DNA from: Escherichia phage SZH-1
DNA length: 43,969 nt
Sequence record: NC_073319.1
Reading direction: 5' to 3' (one strand)
The translations under genes and the position numbers were made by a program. Below are positions 6,134-38,850 of the stretch, piece by piece. Under the pieces are notes generated by a model, which saw nothing but the letters and a program-made list of their open reading frames with translations, was not told where the DNA came from and searched no databases. Each line of letters opens with the position of its first letter. Position 1 is the stretch's first letter.

Positions 6134-6164
6134 GAATAGTAGTCTATTCTATCCCAGTGTGCAA
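6134..6164 (-). promoter_or_regulatory. Promoter TTGCAC-N17-TACTAT with perfect dyad GAATAG-tagt-CTATTC over the -10
   Basis: -35 at 6159..6164, -10 at 6136..6141, dyad 6134..6149; one member of the repeated promoter-operator family. Confidence 0.5.
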
Positions 6165-7454: not shown

Positions 7455-7486
7455 AACCCCCACTCCTCTGTCTCGTTCCTATAGGT

Positions 7487-7517
7487 GAATAGTATCCTAT
7501 TATGTTGGGGTATGCAA
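7487..7517 (-). promoter_or_regulatory. Leftward promoter TTGCAT-N17-TACTAT with dyad GAATAG-tatc-CTATT
   Basis: -35 at 7512..7517, -10 at 7489..7494; same motif family as 6134, 10923, 29405 and 38257. Confidence 0.5.
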
Positions 7518-7897: not shown

Positions 7898-7926
7898 TTG
7901 ATTTCCCATTATTCGCAATGTATACT
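7898..7926 (+). promoter_or_regulatory. Rightward promoter TTGATT-N17-TATACT for the replication operon
   Basis: Hexamers at 7898..7903 and 7921..7926, about 30 nt before the 7959 gene. Confidence 0.45.
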
Positions 7927-7958
7927 TGGTTTCGTTAACTGATAATGAGGGTTTGAGA

Positions 7959-8129
7959 ATGACACAGAATGAAGTAGCTGAGCGTATCGGGGTTACTCGC
8001 CGCACGCTGAATAACTGGTTAAAGAGCGGGAAGTTCCCGGATTGTTGTATCCGCATTATGGGTCGCCGCCAGCCTGGTACGTTCGACCCGGAGAAAGTGG
8101 AAGCGTGGATTAAGGAGAACGTGAAATGA
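7959..8129 (+). CDS. AlpA-like HTH DNA-binding protein
   Basis: ATG at 7959 (listed ORF begins at TTG 7926); MTQNEVAERIGVTRRTLNNWLKSGKFP matches the AlpA/excisionase-type HTH pattern. Confidence 0.6.
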   Translation: MTQNEVAERIGVTRRTLNNWLKSGKFPDCCIRIMGRRQPGTFDPEKVEAWIKENVK

Positions 8130-8417: not shown

Positions 8418-10661
8418 ATGTCCGATGTAATTTTATCCTACTCGTGGTCTCGTCGCAACGCGCGGGCAGAGAAAAAGGATATAAACGTCAGAACTACACA
8501 CACGGCAACACTGGACGACCTGAAAGAGTTAATCCAGCCGCTCGATGCTGTTCGTGATGGGATTAACCCGAAGACCGCGCCCGGTTATATCACTGCCGCG
8601 TGTGACTCGACGCACAGCACCGTAAAAGACCCGGAAACAGGAGACTTTAAGCAGGCGCGTAAAGGCTTTTTCTATCGCTGCGACGCGTCTGTAAGCAAAT
8701 CGTCGCTGGCGTATCTGGACTTCGACAACGCAACGCCGGAAGAGTATCAGGAAGCGGTGCGCCTGGTTAAGCGCAGCCGCCGGGCTATGTGTCTCTATAC
8801 CACGGCATCACATACCGATGAGTCCCCGCGCTTTCGCGTCGTCATGCCGCTGGGCCACCCTGTTGAAGGCGGCGACATCATCCGCGTTCGCCATGGATTG
8901 TTGGAACACTTCTTCAAAGGTATGGGCGCCGACCGCAGCGGTTTTACCCTGTCCCAGCCGATGTACCTGCCGCCAGTTGGCTCTACCGTTATCTGGTCGC
9001 GTCGCAACGACCTGATTGACCCGGACGAGTTACTGGAAGGCATCCCGGATTACGAGGTAAGCAGCGCATCGGATTACCAGATACCGGAAGAACTGCGCAC
9101 CGTGTTTACCGATGCGTTCGAGGCACTGGCGTTTGAATACGGCGGCATCATGACACCACGCGGCCTTAAGATGCCAGCTACACCAGAACACGCAGAGAAC
9201 TACAGCGACCCGACCCCTCGCCCGGATGACTTCCTGCTGTGTTTCCCGCGTGAGGGCTACGAAGCGCCTAACGTAACCATGATTCACGACACCGACATTA
9301 CAGCAACCGAAGGAATGTCGCCGAAAGAGGTGTGGAGATACGCGTGCGATGCGACCGGGCTGCCATTCAGTGAAGTCGCCGAGGCTATCGGCTGGGGTGC
9401 ACGTGAATATGTCTCATGCAGCCTCGACGACCTGGAAGATGGTGATGAGGACTCAGAGGAGGACGAGTTACCGGAACCGGTAAAGGCTGATTTCGTCGTT
9501 GAGGGGTATATGCCGTCGGATTGTATCTGGGATATTGTTGGGGAATCAGGCACGTACAAATCATTCTATACGCTGGGTATGATGTATCTCAGCGCCGCCG
9601 GATACCGGTTTGCTGGCGCTGACACGCAGCGTTGCCACCACTTCTATATCGACGGTGAGGGGGGCGCAGCCACACGTACACGTATTGACGCGCTCGCGGC
9701 TAAATACGGCGCAGAGGGTAAAGATTATGTACACGTCATCGACATGGGCGAAGTCGGCAAACTTAAAAGCCTGATTAAGTTAATGCGCGAAACTGCGGGC
9801 GATGAACCTATCGGCATGGTCGCGTTCGACACCCTTAACCAGACCCTGGCCCTGACGATTGATAAGTTCGACGAGAACAGCTCATCAACGGCAATCGGTA
9901 TGGGTAAAGTTATCGCCATCCTGAAAGAAGTACGTGATGCGACTAAAGCCGCGGTGGGCGTCGTCCACCATACACCGAAGGGTGGAAAGAAAGCCCGCGG
10001 TAGTGGGGCGCTGTATGCGGGCGTCGACGTGGAACTGACAATCGAACGCGCCACTGACCGTCAGATAAACGTATACCACTCTAAATTTAAGCATGGGCCT
10101 CAACAGAAGACGGTTGGCATGGTGCTGGAGTCGGTACAGTTCCGTGAAGCGCCACCACCGAAAGAGTACCGTGCGGTTGAGTTCCTCGGTAGCACAGAGG
10201 AATACGGCACAATCGTAAACCTCGACCTGCCGGAACCGCACAAGGCGCTTGTGCTGATGCCGTGGGGCTTCGAGCCGTTCAAAACTGACGAGGAGAAAGA
10301 GCGGGAAGAAGGGATGACAAAGGAAGGTAAAGAAAACGTAAAGAATGCCGTAAAACGTGGGAAGGATGAAGGAAGGAAGGAATCCATACTCGCCGCGCTG
10401 GAAGACCTGCAACAGTCTGACGACACCGGACGAGGTTTTACCCAACGGCAGATAGTATCGAACTCGGGTGACCATGCCATCACTAACCACCATCTCGAGA
10501 AGATGCTGAAAGACGGTGAGTTGATGCTAGGATGTGATGCTAACGGCGAGGTTATCCCCGGTACATACCGGATACCGGAAAAGATGGGTGACAGATTAAG
10601 ACCGAAGACAATATACGAACCAAATGAAATGCTGGTGGTTACAGAGGAGGATTTGGAATAG
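8418..10661 (+). CDS. Primase-helicase-like replication protein
   Basis: N-terminal primase-like region with LDFDN; C-terminal RecA-like NTPase with Walker A GESGTYKS and Walker-B-like VAFDTL; ends VTEEDLE. Confidence 0.8.
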   Translation: MSDVILSYSWSRRNARAEKKDINVRTTHTATLDDLKELIQPLDAVRDGINPKTAPGYITAACDSTHSTVKDPETGDFKQARKGFFYRCDASVSKSSLAYLDFDNATPEEYQEAVRLVKRSRRAMCLYTTASHTDESPRFRVVMPLGHPVEGGDIIRVRHGLLEHFFKGMGADRSGFTLSQPMYLPPVGSTVIWSRRNDLIDPDELLEGIPDYEVSSASDYQIPEELRTVFTDAFEALAFEYGGIMTPRGLKMPATPEHAENYSDPTPRPDDFLLCFPREGYEAPNVTMIHDTDITATEGMSPKEVWRYACDATGLPFSEVAEAIGWGAREYVSCSLDDLEDGDEDSEEDELPEPVKADFVVEGYMPSDCIWDIVGESGTYKSFYTLGMMYLSAAGYRFAGADTQRCHHFYIDGEGGAATRTRIDALAAKYGAEGKDYVHVIDMGEVGKLKSLIKLMRETAGDEPIGMVAFDTLNQTLALTIDKFDENSSSTAIGMGKVIAILKEVRDATKAAVGVVHHTPKGGKKARGSGALYAGVDVELTIERATDRQINVYHSKFKHGPQQKTVGMVLESVQFREAPPPKEYRAVEFLGSTEEYGTIVNLDLPEPHKALVLMPWGFEPFKTDEEKEREEGMTKEGKENVKNAVKRGKDEGRKESILAALEDLQQSDDTGRGFTQRQIVSNSGDHAITNHHLEKMLKDGELMLGCDANGEVIPGTYRIPEKMGDRLRPKTIYEPNEMLVVTEEDLE

Positions 10662-10958: not shown

Positions 10959-10988
10959 TTGACAACCTGAATAGTTAGCTATTATAGT
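10959..10988 (+). promoter_or_regulatory. Near-consensus sigma70 promoter TTGACA-N17/18-TATAGT with dyad GAATAG-ttag-CTATT in the spacer
   Basis: TTGACA at 10959..10964, TATAGT at 10983..10988; near-identical copy at 13237. Confidence 0.65.
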
Positions 10989-14006: not shown

Positions 14007-14165
14007 ATGATGTTTTTCTGTAAGCACGTATACCGATATATGAAGCCACTTCCGTGGTACGCGGACGAGTACCGTGCCGGGTACAGGCATGTGTGGATTT
14101 GCCGTGATTGTATGAAAATAAGACTCAGCGAAACTAAGGCACTGGATTTAAGGAAAAAGAAATGA
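14007..14165 (+). CDS. Hand-called small ORF (52 aa) coupled to the polymerase gene
   Basis: ATG with AAGGG upstream; contains WICRDC; stop overlaps the polymerase ATG. Confidence 0.35.
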   Translation: MMFFCKHVYRYMKPLPWYADEYRAGYRHVWICRDCMKIRLSETKALDLRKKK

Positions 14166-16435
14166 GCTACTTATACCTGGACTTTGAAACATTCTCCGAA
14201 GCCGATTTAAAGAAAGTTGGCTCCTACGCTTATGCTGAACACCCGTCGACCGAAGTGCTCATCTGTACCTATGCTTTTGACGACAAGCCTGTGCATATAT
14301 GGGATTGCACAGACGGCAGCGACATGCCGGGTGATTTGCATCGCGCGTTACGCCGCCTGGTTAAGCCAAACAGCCGCATCAAGATGGTGTGGCACAACGG
14401 TGGACTTTTCGATAGGCTCATCATGAAACACTGCTGGGGCTTTGATATTCCGGTAAGCAATACCATCGACACTATGATTTGGGCGTTCCGTCACGCGCTG
14501 CCAGGGTCACTTGATGCGTTGTGCGAAGTGCTGGGCGTGTCTGCAGACAACGCGAAAGATAAACGCGGAAAGGCGCTGATTCAGCGTTTCTCTAAACCGA
14601 CGCCGAAGAACTACAAAATCCGCCGTTACACCGCTGAAACACACCCGGACGAGTGGGCGCTGTTCATCAAGTACGCCGTGAGCGACATCACTGCGATGCG
14701 TGAAGTGTTCCATAAGCTGCCGCGTTGGGGTAACTCCGAGTTCGAAGACCGCGTACTGGAACTGGACCAGTTAATCAACGACCGCGGGTTCTTTGTCGAC
14801 ACGGCTCTTGCGGAGGCGGCGGTAGCGGCAGTTGAACGCCACAAGCAAGAGCTAAAAAATGAGGCCCGCGCGAAATTCGGGGGGAAGCTAACGGGGAAAG
14901 ACTTCCTGCCCATCCTTCGGGAGCTGGCACCGGCCTACAATATTTATAATGCGCAGAAGGCAACGCTCGAAGGTTTGCTAGAGGACGACGACTTGCCTGA
15001 CGATGCGCGCACAATCATTGAGATGCGCCTCGGTGCGGCCTCCACGGCGTCGACAAAATACAAACCGCTCCTGCTAGGACGGTCCAAAGACGGGCGCCGC
15101 CGCGGTTGCATCCAGTACGGTGGGGCAAAGCGCACTTTACGATTTGCGGGTAAAGGGTTCCAACCGCAAAACCTGTCGCGCGGGTACTACCATGACGACC
15201 CGACTAACGAGGAAAAGAAACTTGTACGCCAGCCGTGGGAGTCCGACGAAGACTGGAACCGTCGTCTCAACCCCCTATCGTTCGGCATCAATCTGCTGCT
15301 AAAGGGTCGGGCGCATCGCCGTTTCGATGTGTCTAAACTAACGGCCTCGACTGTCCGCAGTTGCATCATCCCGGAAAAAGGTAATAAGTTGCTCGTTGCC
15401 GACTACTCAAACGTGGAAGGGCGCGGGCTAGCCTGGACGGCGGGGGAGACGTCCGCCCTTGAGACGTTCCGCGCGGGGATTGATATCTATTGCGCCACAG
15501 CTGGTAAGATGTTCGGCATGGACCCCGTAGAACTAAAAGCCACCCGTAAGGACCTACGTCAGGTCGGGAAATGTTGCGAGCTTGGCCTCGGCTATGAGGG
15601 GGGTGTAGGGGCCTTTATGACTATGGCTAAAACTTACGGGCTGGACCTCTTTAAAATGACAGAGACAATGCGGGGCACGTTCCCCGACCACATTTGGGCG
15701 GCTACCGCCCGTGGCTACGAATGGGCCAGAATTCAGGAGGCTAAACGCCCGCCAAAGCCTGGTAAAAAAGATGAACGGGCCTCTTATGTGCTGCCTAAAG
15801 AAGTCTGGCGCACCTGCGACGCCATTAAGCGCATGTGGCGGGAAGCCCATCCGGAAACAGTGAAATTCTGGAATGACCTTAAGGATTCGGTGATAGCCGC
15901 CATTAGAAATCCGGGACGAGAGTTTTGGGCGGGGGCCCGAGTACGCCTTAACGGCGACAGAGCCATCCGCATCTGGCGTACTAAAGAGAAAGACAGACAG
16001 GGTAACTTTGTGCCGGGTTGGTGGTTGTGCGTGGAACTGCCGTCTGGGCGCATCATGTCCTACCCTGGTATAGGCTTAAGCGTCACTAAAGAGACTGACG
16101 AGGATGGGCGCGTAACAACTAACGTTCGCATTAAGTACCAGGGCGAAAATCAGACCACCCGCCAGTGGACAACTTTGTACACCCACGGCGGAAAATTGTG
16201 TGAAAACATCATCCAGGCGTTGTGCCGTGATTTACTGGTTAACGGACTCCTGACGGTCGAGGCGGCGGGCTACCCAATTGTACTCCACGTACATGACGAA
16301 TGTGTTGCCGAAACGCCAGACACGCCAGAGTACACGGTTAAAGAGATGGGTGACCTGCTATGCTCATTACCTGAGTGGGCCGAAGGGTTCCCGTTAACAT
16401 GGGCTGGGGAAGAGGTGTACCGTTATGCTAAGTAA
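14162..16435 (+). CDS. Family A DNA polymerase with 3'-5' exonuclease domain
   Basis: Exo motifs YLDFETFS, HNGGLFD, YAVSDI; polymerase motifs ADYSNVEGR, RQVGKCCELGLGYEGG, VLHVHDE. Confidence 0.9.
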   Translation: MSYLYLDFETFSEADLKKVGSYAYAEHPSTEVLICTYAFDDKPVHIWDCTDGSDMPGDLHRALRRLVKPNSRIKMVWHNGGLFDRLIMKHCWGFDIPVSNTIDTMIWAFRHALPGSLDALCEVLGVSADNAKDKRGKALIQRFSKPTPKNYKIRRYTAETHPDEWALFIKYAVSDITAMREVFHKLPRWGNSEFEDRVLELDQLINDRGFFVDTALAEAAVAAVERHKQELKNEARAKFGGKLTGKDFLPILRELAPAYNIYNAQKATLEGLLEDDDLPDDARTIIEMRLGAASTASTKYKPLLLGRSKDGRRRGCIQYGGAKRTLRFAGKGFQPQNLSRGYYHDDPTNEEKKLVRQPWESDEDWNRRLNPLSFGINLLLKGRAHRRFDVSKLTASTVRSCIIPEKGNKLLVADYSNVEGRGLAWTAGETSALETFRAGIDIYCATAGKMFGMDPVELKATRKDLRQVGKCCELGLGYEGGVGAFMTMAKTYGLDLFKMTETMRGTFPDHIWAATARGYEWARIQEAKRPPKPGKKDERASYVLPKEVWRTCDAIKRMWREAHPETVKFWNDLKDSVIAAIRNPGREFWAGARVRLNGDRAIRIWRTKEKDRQGNFVPGWWLCVELPSGRIMSYPGIGLSVTKETDEDGRVTTNVRIKYQGENQTTRQWTTLYTHGGKLCENIIQALCRDLLVNGLLTVEAAGYPIVLHVHDECVAETPDTPEYTVKEMGDLLCSLPEWAEGFPLTWAGEEVYRYAK

Positions 16436-29404: not shown

Positions 29405-29433
29405 TTGCACACCCCAATATAATAGGGTACTAT
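29405..29433 (+). promoter_or_regulatory. Promoter TTGCAC-N17-TACTAT with dyad AATAG-ggta-CTATT for the plus-strand island
   Basis: 27-nt core caccccaatataatagggtactattca identical to the copy at 38263. Confidence 0.5.
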
Positions 29434-29461
29434 TCACCTGTAACTTACTGAGGAAATAATT

Positions 29462-29788
29462 ATGCGTAAATTAGTGTTAGCTCTTGGTTTTATGTCTTTT
29501 GCTACTTTTGGGTCTCCGTGTGAACAGGTGTTTAGTGAATCCGTTCTTATGACTTCTGGTGTGCTTGATAGAGCCGACCCTACTATTGTAAAGGCATTTA
29601 AGGACTCTACAGTTCGCGAGTGTGAGGCCGCCGTGGAGGTTGGTAAATCGGGCCTACCCCCGCAGGCCGTAACCTACACAGTGATACGTTCGGTAGAGAA
29701 AAACGGAGATGCTTTCTATAGCCTACTGACAGCCACCCGTCTGCAAATGGTAATGACAGGGTGGGCGATAGGCGCAGAAAGTAAATAG
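29462..29788 (+). CDS. Secreted/periplasmic small protein (108 aa)
   Basis: Signal-peptide-like MRKLVLALGFMSFATFG; two Cys; GAGGAAA RBS. Confidence 0.55.
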   Translation: MRKLVLALGFMSFATFGSPCEQVFSESVLMTSGVLDRADPTIVKAFKDSTVRECEAAVEVGKSGLPPQAVTYTVIRSVEKNGDAFYSLLTATRLQMVMTGWAIGAESK

Positions 29789-29853
29789 TTGCCTTTATTT
29801 AAAGGAATCCACTGTGGTTAAATAGAACAAATCCTAAACACGAGGAAGTAAGC

Positions 29854-30984
29854 ATGGCCCAGAAGAAAATAACCGACGAACAGTTACAGGAAGAATTGAA
29901 CGCCGGGATGAAGAATGTAGACATCGCCCGTAAATACGGCATCTCAGACCGAGTTATTCGTATCCGTAAAGCGAAGCTGGCTAAGAAAGGTGTAGGCCAC
30001 GGGCGTGACGTTAGCCACCTTGTCCCAGACGGCTACAAGATTAAAGGGACGTCGTCTCTGGTAGACGAGTTCGGCAATACTAAGTTGCAATGGGTTAAGA
30101 CAGACACCGACGCTGAACGTCAGGTCGAGTTGATGAAAGCCGTGATTGAAGGCATGAAGTCAGAGATTACGCCAGTTGCGCCGGCTAAAGCGACTCGAGC
30201 CAAACGCGACGACAAGCTACTCAATCTTTACACGGTATCTGATTTCCATCTCGGTATGCTTGCCTGGGCCGACGAGAGCGGCGACGACTGGGATATAAAG
30301 ATTGCGGAAGACCTGTTCTCTCGTTGGTTCGACGCGGCGTTTCAGAAAGCACCGGATGCAGGAACAGGAGTTATTAACCTGCTGGGTGATTTCGCGCACT
30401 TCGATAGTCTGGATGCCGTTACACCTGAGTCGCGTCACGTGTTGGACGCAGACACTCGCTACCAGAAACTCGTCCGCTACATGATTCGTATGGTACGCCG
30501 TGTTGTAGATATGGCACTGGTTAAACATAAAAATGTTCGCTTGCTTATCGTACAGGGGAACCATGACCCTGTAGGCTCTGTATGGCTGGCTGAAATGTTC
30601 ACAGTTTTATATTCGAACGACAGCCGAGTGATTGTCGATACGTCGCCGGATGTTTACAAGATGGTGCAACACGGAAAAACGACGTTGTTCTTTCACCACG
30701 GGCATAAGGCGCGATTCGATGCTATCGAACCGGTTATGATTGCCAAATTCCGCAAAGCGTTCGGCGAGAGTGTTTACAGCTACGCCCACGTCGGCCACCT
30801 GCACCACCAGAAGATTGTAGAAAGCCGTAACATGATTGTTGAGCAACACCGCACCTTAGCGGCTAAAGACGCCTACGCCTCCCGCGGCGGATGGATGTCG
30901 GGCCGTAGTGCAAACGTAATTACTTATAGCGCCGAATATGGCGAGGTCGCGCGTTTAACTATTTCACCGGAGATGTTGGGATGA
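29854..30984 (+). CDS. HTH-fused calcineurin-like metallophosphoesterase
   Basis: N-terminal HTH NVDIARKYGISDRVIRIRKAKL; all five metallophosphoesterase motifs: SDFHLG, LLGDFAHFD, VQGNHD, FFHHGH, HVGHLHH. Confidence 0.75.
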   Translation: MAQKKITDEQLQEELNAGMKNVDIARKYGISDRVIRIRKAKLAKKGVGHGRDVSHLVPDGYKIKGTSSLVDEFGNTKLQWVKTDTDAERQVELMKAVIEGMKSEITPVAPAKATRAKRDDKLLNLYTVSDFHLGMLAWADESGDDWDIKIAEDLFSRWFDAAFQKAPDAGTGVINLLGDFAHFDSLDAVTPESRHVLDADTRYQKLVRYMIRMVRRVVDMALVKHKNVRLLIVQGNHDPVGSVWLAEMFTVLYSNDSRVIVDTSPDVYKMVQHGKTTLFFHHGHKARFDAIEPVMIAKFRKAFGESVYSYAHVGHLHHQKIVESRNMIVEQHRTLAAKDAYASRGGWMSGRSANVITYSAEYGEVARLTISPEMLG

Positions 30985-31211
30985 CTTCAAAATACAACCG
31001 CACAATGACAAACACCCACGGCAGCACTATGACTGTAGACGTTTACGATGTGCTGCGCGCCTTCGACATCCGCGACCCGGCGCTACAGCACGCATTGAAG
31101 AAGCTACTGTGTATGGGCCTTCGCGGACACAAGGATACCGGGACAGACTTAGCGGAAGCAATTGAAAGTCTGGAGAAGTTACAGGAGTACAGGAGTAACA
31201 TTGATGAGTAA
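30981..31211 (+). CDS. Hypothetical protein (76 aa)
   Basis: ATGA overlap with the phosphoesterase gene. Confidence 0.5.
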   Translation: MTSKYNRTMTNTHGSTMTVDVYDVLRAFDIRDPALQHALKKLLCMGLRGHKDTGTDLAEAIESLEKLQEYRSNIDE

Positions 31212-31380
31212 GACCGTAATGAAAACAATATACGTAATCCGTGTATATGACGAAGAATGGGATGAGTGGGTCGATATTTACGCCGTGGGTAGCAAGGAAG
31301 AGGCCTCGAAAGAGATGACAGAACGGAGTGACCGAGGTCAGTTAACTAACTTCTATGAAATGCCGTTCAAAAGTGAGTGA
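31204..31380 (+). CDS. Hypothetical acidic protein (58 aa)
   Basis: Internal ATG overlapping the upstream stop by 8 nt; followed by a terminator. Confidence 0.45.
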   Translation: MSKTVMKTIYVIRVYDEEWDEWVDIYAVGSKEEASKEMTERSDRGQLTNFYEMPFKSE

Positions 31381-37982: not shown

Positions 37983-38161
37983 GCTAGGCCTTATCATTTA
38001 AACATAGAAACGGCGTAATCTCAGTAAACCAGTTACTTTTTACACAAGCAATAGAGTATGGCCCTTCCGAACGCGTCAGCGTAACTACACTCGGACTTAA
38101 CGTCCGGCTCCGTTACCTGCCACGCCGCGGTCGCTTGTTCATACTTCACAAGCTCAGGTGG

Positions 38162-38204
38162 AGCTTAGCACATTTTTGGTGAAAAGTCAACTATTCGAAT
38201 AGTT
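38162..38204 (-). promoter_or_regulatory. Candidate leftward promoter with perfect 16-bp palindrome AACTATTCGAATAGTT at the -35
   Basis: TTGACT (rc of 38185..38190), N17, TAAGCT; palindrome at 38189..38204. Confidence 0.3.
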
Positions 38205-38256
38205 TATTCCAACATTTACAATTGAGTGGAATAACAGGAATACATAAACAAATAGT

Positions 38257-38285
38257 TTGCGCACCCCAATATAATAGGGTACTAT
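38257..38285 (+). promoter_or_regulatory. Promoter TTGCGC-N17-TACTAT with dyad AATAG-ggta-CTATT for the lipoprotein unit
   Basis: Same 27-nt core as the promoter at 29405. Confidence 0.5.
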
Positions 38286-38312
38286 TCATTCTATCGAACC
38301 GGGGAGGCCGTC

Positions 38313-38414
38313 ATGTTAGTCGTTATTTCAGTAGTAATTGCAGTTGATGCGGTGATGTTTCTTTGGGCTTGTAGTGGTATTGGTGAAATTGACACGGGTA
38401 ATGGTGAACTATGA
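38313..38414 (+). CDS. Hand-called tiny hydrophobic peptide (33 aa)
   Basis: MLVVISVVIAVDAVMFLWACSG...; GGGGAGG RBS; stop overlaps the lipoprotein ATG. Confidence 0.3.
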   Translation: MLVVISVVIAVDAVMFLWACSGIGEIDTGNGEL

Positions 38415-38755
38415 AATATATTAAATTAGCAGTAGCGGGTGTTGTAGCCGTTTGTTTGAGTGGTTGCGTAAGGTCGTTGCCAGACCCGGCTTTACAGGTT
38501 TATCAGGCAGGGGATACAACGGCAACATGTAATCAGTTACTATCGAGAATCGCCACGACAAAACAAGCTCAAGCCAACGCTACGCACCGTGTTAATAAGC
38601 AAATAGGTACTAACGTTGTACTCGGTGTTACAGGCGCATTCCTGATTGTTCCGCTGTTCTTTATGGACACGGGCGCCGGGCCTTCTATGGACGAGATGAC
38701 AGCCGGTAATCGTCTGTCGCAGTTACAACAAACATACGACGAGAAATGCAAATGA
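38411..38755 (+). CDS. Lipoprotein with internal hydrophobic segment
   Basis: Signal peptide with lipobox LSGC; hydrophobic VVLGVTGAFLIVPLFF; antisense island inside the head module. Confidence 0.6.
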   Translation: MKYIKLAVAGVVAVCLSGCVRSLPDPALQVYQAGDTTATCNQLLSRIATTKQAQANATHRVNKQIGTNVVLGVTGAFLIVPLFFMDTGAGPSMDEMTAGNRLSQLQQTYDEKCK

Positions 38756-38828
38756 CAAATAGTGTGATGTTTTATTTTGTTTTGTGGGTATCGGCTGCGG
38801 CTATCACCGCGATGTTCATATAAAAATA

Positions 38829-38850
38829 AAGCCCCATAGCGGGGCTTTTT
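38829..38850. terminator. Bidirectional terminator after the lipoprotein unit
   Basis: AAGCCCC-atagc-GGGGCTT followed by TTTTTAT; minus strand also T-rich. Confidence 0.6.

Follow-up and report, generated by a model that had tools for sequence, protein, structure and literature searches.

A likely accessory lipoprotein cassette with a putative exclusion role in a cargo slot of Escherichia phage SZH-1

Introduction

The question raised by positions 38162-38850 of Escherichia phage SZH-1 (NC_073319.1; the whole stretch of 43,969 nucleotides is called the window) is what a small lipoprotein gene, framed by a promoter-like element and a terminator and transcribed against the late genes, does in a phage of the Guernseyvirinae, a group regarded as lytic. 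A preliminary description of the locus, made from the letters and their open reading frames (ORFs), had suggested superinfection exclusion or receptor masking. Exclusion factors carried by phages and plasmids decide which mobile elements share a cell; few of them are known in Gram-negative bacteria, and these are mostly specific to one receptor.

The unit is likely an accessory lipoprotein moron with an exclusion role, built on an uncharacterised protein family. That it is a genuine, expressed accessory lipoprotein cassette is held with high confidence. The fuller reading, in which a slot cassette with early-type expression makes a hairpin lipoprotein that is tethered in the periplasm and excludes other elements at the envelope, is put forward tentatively, as an explanation a little short of an even chance.

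The cassette and its cargo slot

The window is the genome of a Kagunavirus (Guernseyvirinae). The features of the locus are as follows, with amino acids abbreviated as aa and nucleotides as nt:

Minus strand, flanking the cassette: Rz (phrog_2536)
Minus strand, flanking the cassette: Rz1 (phrog_5672), overlapping Rz
38257..38288, plus strand: promoter-like core, 31/32 identical to 29405-29436
38257-38262, plus strand: -35 element TTGCGC
38273-38286: 14-bp palindrome AATAGGGTACTATT, overlapping the -10 element
38280-38285, plus strand: -10 element TACTAT, separated from the -35 element by a 17-nt spacer
38303..38307, plus strand: Shine-Dalgarno sequence GGAGG, read from the sequence, 5 nt upstream of the orf1 ATG
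38313..38414, plus strand: orf1, 33-aa peptide MLVVISVVIAVDAVMFLWACSGIGEIDTGNGEL, containing a single hydrophobic helix and an acidic tail
38411..38755, plus strand: 114-aa prolipoprotein, its start overlapping the orf1 stop (ATGA)
38752..38823, plus strand: orf3, 23-aa hydrophobic peptide MTNSVMFYFVLWVSAAAITAMFI, its ATG overlapping the lipoprotein stop (ATGA)
38828..38848, both strands: bidirectional intrinsic terminator, a GC-rich hairpin with a T-run on both strands
Minus strand, flanking the cassette: Hoc-like head decoration gene (phrog_3945)

The cassette thus lies on the plus strand between Rz/Rz1 and the Hoc-like gene, antisense to the late genes, and its GC content is 44.6% against 51.1% for the window. 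The hairpin at 38828-38848 (-13.0 and -13.5 kcal/mol) is terminator-like in either direction: on the plus strand it ends the cassette, and on the minus strand it comes after the Hoc-like gene. It is conserved in relatives, where an A-T to G-C exchange is seen at the base of the stem. At the other end, the 32-nt string TTGCRCACCCCAATATAATAGGGTACTATTCA is found at 29405-29436 and 38257-38288 (31/32 identical), while no match to this core was obtained in 100 shuffles. The preliminary description had outlined a self-contained antisense unit adjoining the spanins, with a 33-aa and a 114-aa ORF transcribed against the head operon, a promoter-operator core common with an island at 29405, and a bidirectional terminator. 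All of these elements were recovered, with Rz and Rz1 flanking the unit on the minus strand.

A stretch of ~1 kb at the locus is 96-99% identical to the Escherichia coli and Shigella Kagunavirus phages phiSD1, BUCT823, HSE2, fBC-Eco01 and Golestan. Part of this stretch was matched by 179 phage records and the whole of it by 9 of the 179. The promoter core is conserved in relatives that carry different cargo. For example, a 67-aa protein in Bas70 and a Dam-type methylase in EM1 are framed by the conserved core and terminator, and K1H has only an ORF of the 33-aa type between the same promoter and terminator. In Jerseyvirus PK1 the core is followed by a 179-aa ORF annotated as 'endonuclease V11 protein', and the terminator hairpin at this slot was not recovered by a pattern search. 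The site is a conserved Guernseyvirinae cargo slot with interchangeable plus-strand genes. The marks by which morons are recognised (a promoter-like element and a terminator of their own, variable cargo at the site, deviant GC content) are all found in the cassette, which is an accessory, moron-like unit, though in a lytic phage. Guernseyvirinae are used in phage therapy and synthetic biology, and a cargo slot framed by promoter and terminator is a natural place for payload insertion.

Selection on the ORFs was assessed by the ratio of nonsynonymous to synonymous changes per site (pN/pS) from Nei-Gojobori counts. In an environmental Kagunavirus contig (L075) the lipoprotein is 82% identical to the window copy, and against this copy the lipoprotein gene has an in-frame pN/pS of 0.20. 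The in-frame values are 0.16 for the 23-aa orf3 and 0.41 for the 33-aa orf1; the other frames give 1.2-1.5 overall, with values above 1.1 for orf3 and above 1.3 for orf1. As purifying selection is seen only in the coding frames, all three ORFs are real coding sequences. orf3, which was missing from the preliminary description, may alternatively start at 38746 (25 aa). The L075 counterpart, MTNSLGFYAVLWVTAAVITGMFI, keeps its start, stop and length despite many nucleotide changes.

The 33-aa and 114-aa products had been treated as a pair, which did not hold. The positional homolog of orf1 in K1H (MMVAISFVLLVNLGLFVWAVSGVEDADSGNGEL, compared with MLVVISVVIAVDAVMFLWACSGIGEIDTGNGEL here) stands alone, and L075 is without the 33-aa ORF: its promoter leads directly to a ribosome-binding site and the gene for the lipoprotein. 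The 33-aa peptide occupies the slot independently and is not an obligate partner of the lipoprotein. The partner of the lipoprotein in both divergent Kagunavirus lineages is the downstream 23-aa peptide; across all homolog loci searched, a small hydrophobic ORF downstream of the lipoprotein was found only in Kagunavirus. Only 4 nt separate the orf3 stop from the terminator stem. A ribosome terminating there would overlie part of the hairpin, and translation of orf3 could influence termination, or read-through antisense to the Hoc-like gene.

The lipoprotein and its family

The 114-aa protein starts with MKYIK-LAVAGVVAVC-LSG-C19, that is, a signal peptide of residues 1-18 and a lipobox L16-S17-G18-C19. 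The lipid-attachment Cys19 is invariant in alignments of 21, 65 and 85 sequences. A lipobox-type tetrapeptide stands upstream of the core in 101 homologs, with LSGC, LAGC and LTGC the commonest, and the residue following the lipid Cys in these homologs is A, G or V, never Asp. On sequence criteria the protein is a bacterial lipoprotein, in agreement with the LSGC lipobox first pointed out for it, and a member of phrog_13472 (function unknown), which it matches over its full length (E=1.2e-44; residues 3-114 aligned with positions 1-113 of the 113-position profile). The invariant residues are C19, D35, C40, N68 and C113. A linker with Q32/G34/D35 is conserved, and no part of the protein is better conserved than the nearly invariant segment N-V-A-L-G-V-T-G-A-F-L-I-V-P-L-F-F-M-D.

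The protein had been described as having no obvious relative. This view has to be given up: a scan of 1.84 billion representatives returned 116 relatives as representatives at 50% identity (E<=0.001), and a profile search gave at least 282 family clusters at 90% identity. The distribution is patchy, with the family present in 55 of 185,579 species in a species-level genome scan. Carriers include members of the Alpha-, Beta- and Gammaproteobacteria, Deferribacterales, Planctomycetota, Omnitrophota, Nitrospinota and Desulfobacterota. In the source records all members are named 'hypothetical protein' except one (P0184), called 'DksA' by the Joint Genome Institute (JGI).

The core had no Pfam domain in any of the 65 members scanned, 11 of which carry a fused C-terminal SHOCT domain, for which a role in oligomerisation has been proposed (PMC3581485). 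Searches of Pfam, NCBIfam, PADLOC and PDB sequences with the three window products and the family profile gave no significant match. In PADLOC-DB the three window products were without a match at E<=1, as were the homologs P0007 and P0009; P0011, a homolog with a C-terminal SHOCT domain, weakly matched PDLC03095, a Type I specificity subunit (E=0.015). No literature on the family was found under accession numbers, phrog_13472 or Kagunavirus lipoproteins. The family is widespread and uncharacterised.

Fold and topology

The hydrophobic stretch N68-D86 reaches a Kyte-Doolittle maximum of 2.37. With a 65-sequence alignment, AlphaFold2 predicted helices at 2-16, 40-77 and 90-112, with a mean predicted local distance difference test score (pLDDT) of 82; the linker after the signal helix is unstructured in the model and conserved in sequence. 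The first helix of the mature part starts at C40, and the second runs up to C113. The mature part alone gave the same helix-loop-helix at a pLDDT of 68. Fold searches returned generic alpha-hairpins only.

Two topologies have to be weighed. In the first, the mature protein would be an antiparallel hairpin closed by a periplasmic C40-C113 disulfide, with the hydrophobic stretch as its tip. In the second, the protein would be a bitopic inner-membrane lipoprotein, with a lipid anchor, a true transmembrane helix at N68-D86 and residues 87-114 in the cytoplasm. The second is suggested by the 17-19-residue hydrophobic stretch itself, which is long and hydrophobic enough to score as a transmembrane helix, and by the AlphaFold2 confidence, which is lowest over this segment in both runs, as is frequent for membrane-embedded segments. 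Moreover, a few homologs have C-terminal zinc-ribbon-like domains (PF14471; one is the 'DksA' of JGI), a type of domain that is usually cytoplasmic. The cysteines point the other way. In 82 of the 101 homologs a single Cys is found between lipid Cys and core, and a single one beyond the core; the first is 27-28 residues before the core in 93/101 and the second 27 residues after it in 93/101, a symmetry kept in more than 90% of these homologs. The flank charge is +0.7 before the core (basic) and -2.0 after it (acidic), which opposes a cytoplasmic C-terminus because it is the reverse of the positive-inside pattern. It is also atypical for a mere anchor to be the most conserved part of a protein.

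Given the predicted helix-loop-helix, the symmetric cysteines and the flank charges, the disulfide-closed hairpin is favoured as rather probable, and the bitopic arrangement is considered unlikely, though a serious competitor. The lipoprotein-plus-transmembrane architecture given in the preliminary description is accordingly not supported: the hydrophobic stretch is there, but it is more probably the tip of a hairpin than a spanning helix.

Promoter-like core and regulation

The palindrome that overlaps the -10 element belongs to a set. The pattern AATAG-N4-CTATT has 7 copies in the window (6135, 7488, 10970, 13247, 17051, 29421 and 38273) against 0.03 expected. All copies align with -35/-10 hexamers upstream of operons, all of them non-structural; none lies ahead of a structural operon. 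Two classes can be distinguished. The copies at 6135 (-), 7488 (-), 29421 (+) and 38273 (+) are of the class TTGCAC-N17-TACTAT, with the palindrome over the -10 element, whereas those at 10970, 13247 and 17051 (all +) are of the class TTGACA-N17-TATAGT, with the palindrome within the spacer. A third copy of the whole core, with 3 mismatches, is found at 7486-7517 (-). Elsewhere, copies of the core stand ahead of a cluster of small genes that runs leftward (7463 and below) and of the 29405 island, while the TTGACA-N17-TATAGT copies precede plus-strand operons at ~11.0, 13.3 and 17.1 kb, in a region that also holds large ORFs at 8418-10661 and 14162-16435. The equivalent position in phage fBC-Eco01 is annotated as 'phage promoter (PHIRE)'.

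The palindrome set looks like the operator of one dimeric regulator, and a 67-aa helix-turn-helix (HTH) protein encoded at 7926-8129 is one candidate binder. A dimeric DNA-binding protein would then place the lipoprotein cassette under joint control with early or middle genes. Because the -10 palindrome is common to their promoters, the cassette is probably switched on with the early and DNA-metabolism operons and not with the surrounding late genes.

The island at 29405-31380 is a second plus-strand island, located within the minus-strand tail genes and headed by the same promoter core. It comprises genes for a 108-aa signal-peptide protein (phrog_14165, function unknown), a 376-aa DNA-repair exonuclease/metallophosphatase with an N-terminal HTH (phrog_704) and two small ORFs. 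Promoter-like arrangements also occur on the opposite strand at both places, namely TCGATA-N18-TATATT at 38297-38268 (-) and TTACAG-N16-TATATT near 29421 (span 29420-29450, -). Both face minus-strand structural genes, and the element may be bidirectional.

Spanin genes and cassette promoter are separated by ~270 nt (37983-38256) that nearly every one of the 179 related phages conserves irrespective of its cargo, and that contain only a 38-aa ORF. The minus-strand RNA of this stretch has a more stable fold than shuffled sequences (z = -2.98), and a strong terminator at 37982-37963, just upstream of Rz, closes it. The stretch also has a perfect palindrome, CTATTCGAATAG, at 38191-38202 and an inverted repeat, TTATTCCA...TGGAATAA, at 38205-38234. 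The stretch may serve as a leader, encode a small RNA or have a regulatory role; an Rfam scan of the window, this stretch included, gave no match at the gathering threshold.

Distribution of homologs

In at least seven loci of Citrobacter and related P22-like phages or prophages, a homolog lies directly after the ejection-protein gene 16 and before mnt/arc/ant and the tailspike gene. This position between gene 16 and gene 9 applies to the homologs P0007 and P0004 and to IMG/VR loci, but not to the gene in the window itself. The Citrobacter copy is preceded by an extended -10-like promoter of its own, with a hairpin beyond its stop, and it had no DNA match in 5,426 complete E. coli genomes. A SieA identity was considered for the ORFs beside the Citrobacter prophage homolog and was rejected; the prophages with the lipoprotein have no SieA-like neighbour.

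In an integrative and conjugative element (ICE) of Seleniivibrio and Deferribacterales, a homolog lies directly after traH-traG_N and borders variable cargo of restriction-modification (RM) or bacteriophage exclusion (BREX) systems. This homolog stays in place while the downstream cargo changes from type III-like RM to BREX. The same 134-aa homolog is found in three loci (L007-L009, from Seleniivibrio woodruffii and related metagenome contigs). Two of them have an SNF2 helicase, a DUF4391 protein, a methylase and a ResIII endonuclease downstream, and the third has BrxA and an MmeI-like methylase (BREX), a pattern that marks a defence-island hotspot at the end of the ICE transfer module.

Other homologs are found in early regions of lytic Aeromonas podophages (Autographiviridae), on a small plasmid and on Rhizobium megaplasmids. 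In environmental genomes the homolog is a stand-alone gene with no recurrent neighbour. All-against-all clustering of neighbours over ~70 loci showed that only P22-like virion genes and a few integrases recur, and a Pfam scan of the 149 nearest neighbours gave 130 families, each with two occurrences at most.

One further record may be a phage in disguise. The E. coli 'plasmid' pC16EC0033-2 (CP088689.1, L085; 44,086 bp, from a blood isolate, deposited as circular and non-mobilizable) has the gene order of the window over an 8.3-kb stretch. A 387-nt gene of Rz size is followed by the lipoprotein gene, an immunoglobulin-domain gene at the Hoc-like position, and genes for a minor capsid protein, a DUF4055 protein and the large terminase. 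This layout, together with the 44-kb length, suggests a Kagunavirus genome in a carrier state or co-purified phage DNA, and no plasmid.

Possible function

A superinfection or entry exclusion function is regarded as possible, on balance slightly doubtful. The idea comes from homologs that recur where other elements keep exclusion genes and from an analogy with the phage lipoproteins Llp, Cor and Ltp. The mechanism could run as follows. Host RNA polymerase would start at the sigma-70-type TTGCGC-N17-TACTAT, and one short mRNA would yield three translationally coupled products before transcription stops at the bidirectional terminator. The 114-aa prolipoprotein, judging from its signal sequence, would be exported by Sec, lipidated at Cys19 and cleaved by signal peptidase II, so that the mature lipoprotein would be tethered at the periplasmic face of a membrane. 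There the mature part would form the antiparallel helical hairpin, its open end stapled by the C40-C113 disulfide and its closed end displaying the almost invariant 17-residue hydrophobic loop VALGVTGAFLIVPLFFM, which may dip into a membrane leaflet or bind hydrophobic partners. The role proposed is to shield the envelope of the infected cell from further invasion at the periplasm or inner-membrane step, possibly by interference with the trans-envelope DNA conduit of the incoming element. The 23-aa membrane peptide would probably assist the lipoprotein in the membrane, and the 33-aa peptide would be an older, independent occupant of the slot.

Exclusion at this step is preferred to receptor masking, which is less likely and for which no support was found. 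A hydrophobic tip that is invariant across phyla argues against the masking of a particular receptor and for a common target, and suggests, for example, the membrane itself or a conserved envelope machine.

A bolder form of the exclusion proposal makes the lipid-anchored, disulfide-stapled hairpin with its invariant hydrophobic tip a generic entry-exclusion device, the founding phage example of an undescribed class that spans phyla. Such a device would block the assembly of trans-envelope DNA conduits, be they podophage ejection proteins, siphophage tape-measure channels or the type IV secretion systems (T4SS) of conjugation. This would explain why the gene was recruited independently by P22-like prophages (in the place of sieA), ICEs (by traG), plasmids and lytic phages. 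We consider this form decidedly unlikely, but the importance of the locus would rise considerably if it were true.

Several observations weigh against exclusion by a hairpin lipoprotein made early. The core hexamers agree with the consensus at only 7 of 12 positions and were not picked up by a consensus promoter scan. The low model confidence over the core, its ability to score as a transmembrane helix and the zinc-ribbon-like extensions of some homologs, all described above, count here as well. None of the known exclusion, defence or entry-exclusion families in PHROGs, NCBIfam and PADLOC matches the lipoprotein. Finally, many homologs lie among ordinary chromosomal genes, and the ancestral role may therefore be a housekeeping function of the envelope.

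These chromosomal homologs, with no mobile elements as neighbours, also speak for envelope conditioning. Here the lipoprotein, jointly with the small membrane peptides, would modify or stabilise the envelope of the host during infection, for example by protection from lysis from without, by resistance to external membrane-active agents such as lambda Bor provides against serum, or by tuning of lysis, and would leave other phages unblocked. The layout of lambda bor, an antisense lipoprotein gene beside Rz/Rz1, is alike, and a hydrophobic motif invariant across phyla would fit a universal envelope target (a membrane lipid or a conserved machine) and no specific phage component. However, the homology to Bor ends at the signal peptide, and the other cargos of the slot (Dam methylase, endonuclease) are unrelated to lysis. 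Homologs in other phages lie away from lysis genes, so that the place beside the spanins seems to characterise the slot, not the gene. Envelope conditioning is thus judged unlikely, though it deserves to be kept in view. If the function is such mundane conditioning, the cassette carries an ordinary accessory gene.

The patchy distribution invites yet another explanation, namely that the protein is an orphan immunity lipoprotein facing the periplasm, carried by mobile elements and neutralising a membrane-targeting toxin such as a bacteriocin or an effector of type VI secretion (T6SS) or contact-dependent inhibition (CDI). The genes are small and stand alone, spread patchily over many phyla, plasmids, prophages and ICEs with no conserved neighbour, which is the pattern known for orphan immunity genes, and a hydrophobic hairpin could bind a pore-former in the membrane. 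Nevertheless, no recurring toxin-like or secretion-system neighbour was seen in 55 genome loci, and the conservation across phyla is too strong for a typical immunity protein, as these normally diversify with their toxins. Immunity to a bacteriocin would also be of little gain to a lytic phage in a short infection. We regard this explanation as improbable.

A unimolecular spanin or lysis accessory, in which an outer-membrane lipid anchor and an inner-membrane segment bridge the envelope as in phage T1 gp11, was considered as well, since the protein has a lipobox and a second hydrophobic segment and its gene lies beside the spanin genes. The phage already has a complete Rz/Rz1 pair, and the unit is on the opposite strand from the lysis genes, under an early-class promoter, and absent from 170 of the 179 related phages. 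Its homologs occur outside lysis cassettes. The spacing is another objection, with 48 residues from the lipid anchor to the hydrophobic segment and 28 residues following it. Strand, distribution and the presence of Rz/Rz1 effectively rule this candidate out.

Exclusion of other elements by the lipoprotein remains the preferred reading. Should the family indeed exclude invaders, widely different elements would be reusing one compact single-gene module, and its target would accordingly be a common step of DNA entry.

Comparison with known systems

The periplasmic adaptors (membrane fusion proteins) with alpha-hairpins, such as HlyD and MacA, are among the closest known systems. In layout, the nearest is lambda Bor/Iss (PF06291): according to the lambda annotation, bor is likewise a small lipoprotein gene antisense beside Rz/Rz1 in a self-contained unit. 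Bor and the 114-aa protein each combine a lipobox with a hydrophobic stretch further on and with two additional cysteines. Homology was nevertheless rejected, as there was no PF06291 match at E<=1 and the hhalign alignment covers only the 21-residue signal peptide. Lambda is temperate and bor is expressed from the prophage, whereas the window phage comes from a lytic group and its cassette promoter is common with early-type operons. By analogy of arrangement, bor is the closest positional analogue.

Entry exclusion in conjugation (TraS/TraT of F, Eex of SXT, the TrbK/EexN lipoproteins) offers another parallel. The exclusion genes of F and SXT adjoin traG, and the Seleniivibrio ICE homolog similarly follows traH-traG_N, but this arrangement is seen in one ICE lineage only. 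NCBIfam gave no match to TrbK, EexN or any other family.

In P22-like prophages without sieA, homologs of the lipoprotein take the sieA slot, from gene 16 to the mnt/arc/ant-tailspike genes. This slot is known to vary, because sieA is carried by 22 of 66 P22-like phages (PMC10883804). SieA resides in the inner membrane and is 162-164 aa long; it is predicted to have three transmembrane helices, lacks a signal sequence and carries the motif FxRYPxEAxxFNK, and it blocks the conduit formed by ejection proteins (PMC10883804). In contrast, the 114-aa protein has a lipoprotein signal, one internal hydrophobic stretch and no FxRYPxEAxxFNK, so the likeness is positional only.

Llp of T5, Cor of phi80, N15 and T1-like phages, and Ltp of Streptococcus phage TP-J34 are likewise small lipoproteins that phages produce in infected or lysogenic cells. 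Llp is an early product of a lytic phage, and both Llp and Cor act on one receptor, FhuA. For the family described here a receptor-specific mechanism is unlikely, because it is conserved across phyla that have no common phage receptor. The Cor family (phrog_1119) was matched at E=0.29 over residues 1-37 (the signal peptide) only, and no other exclusion family was among the PHROGs matches listed. Ltp blocks DNA injection by binding the tape measure protein (PMC3952083). Sharing no family with the lipoprotein, SieA, Llp, Cor and Ltp are, by analogy, its closest functional analogues.

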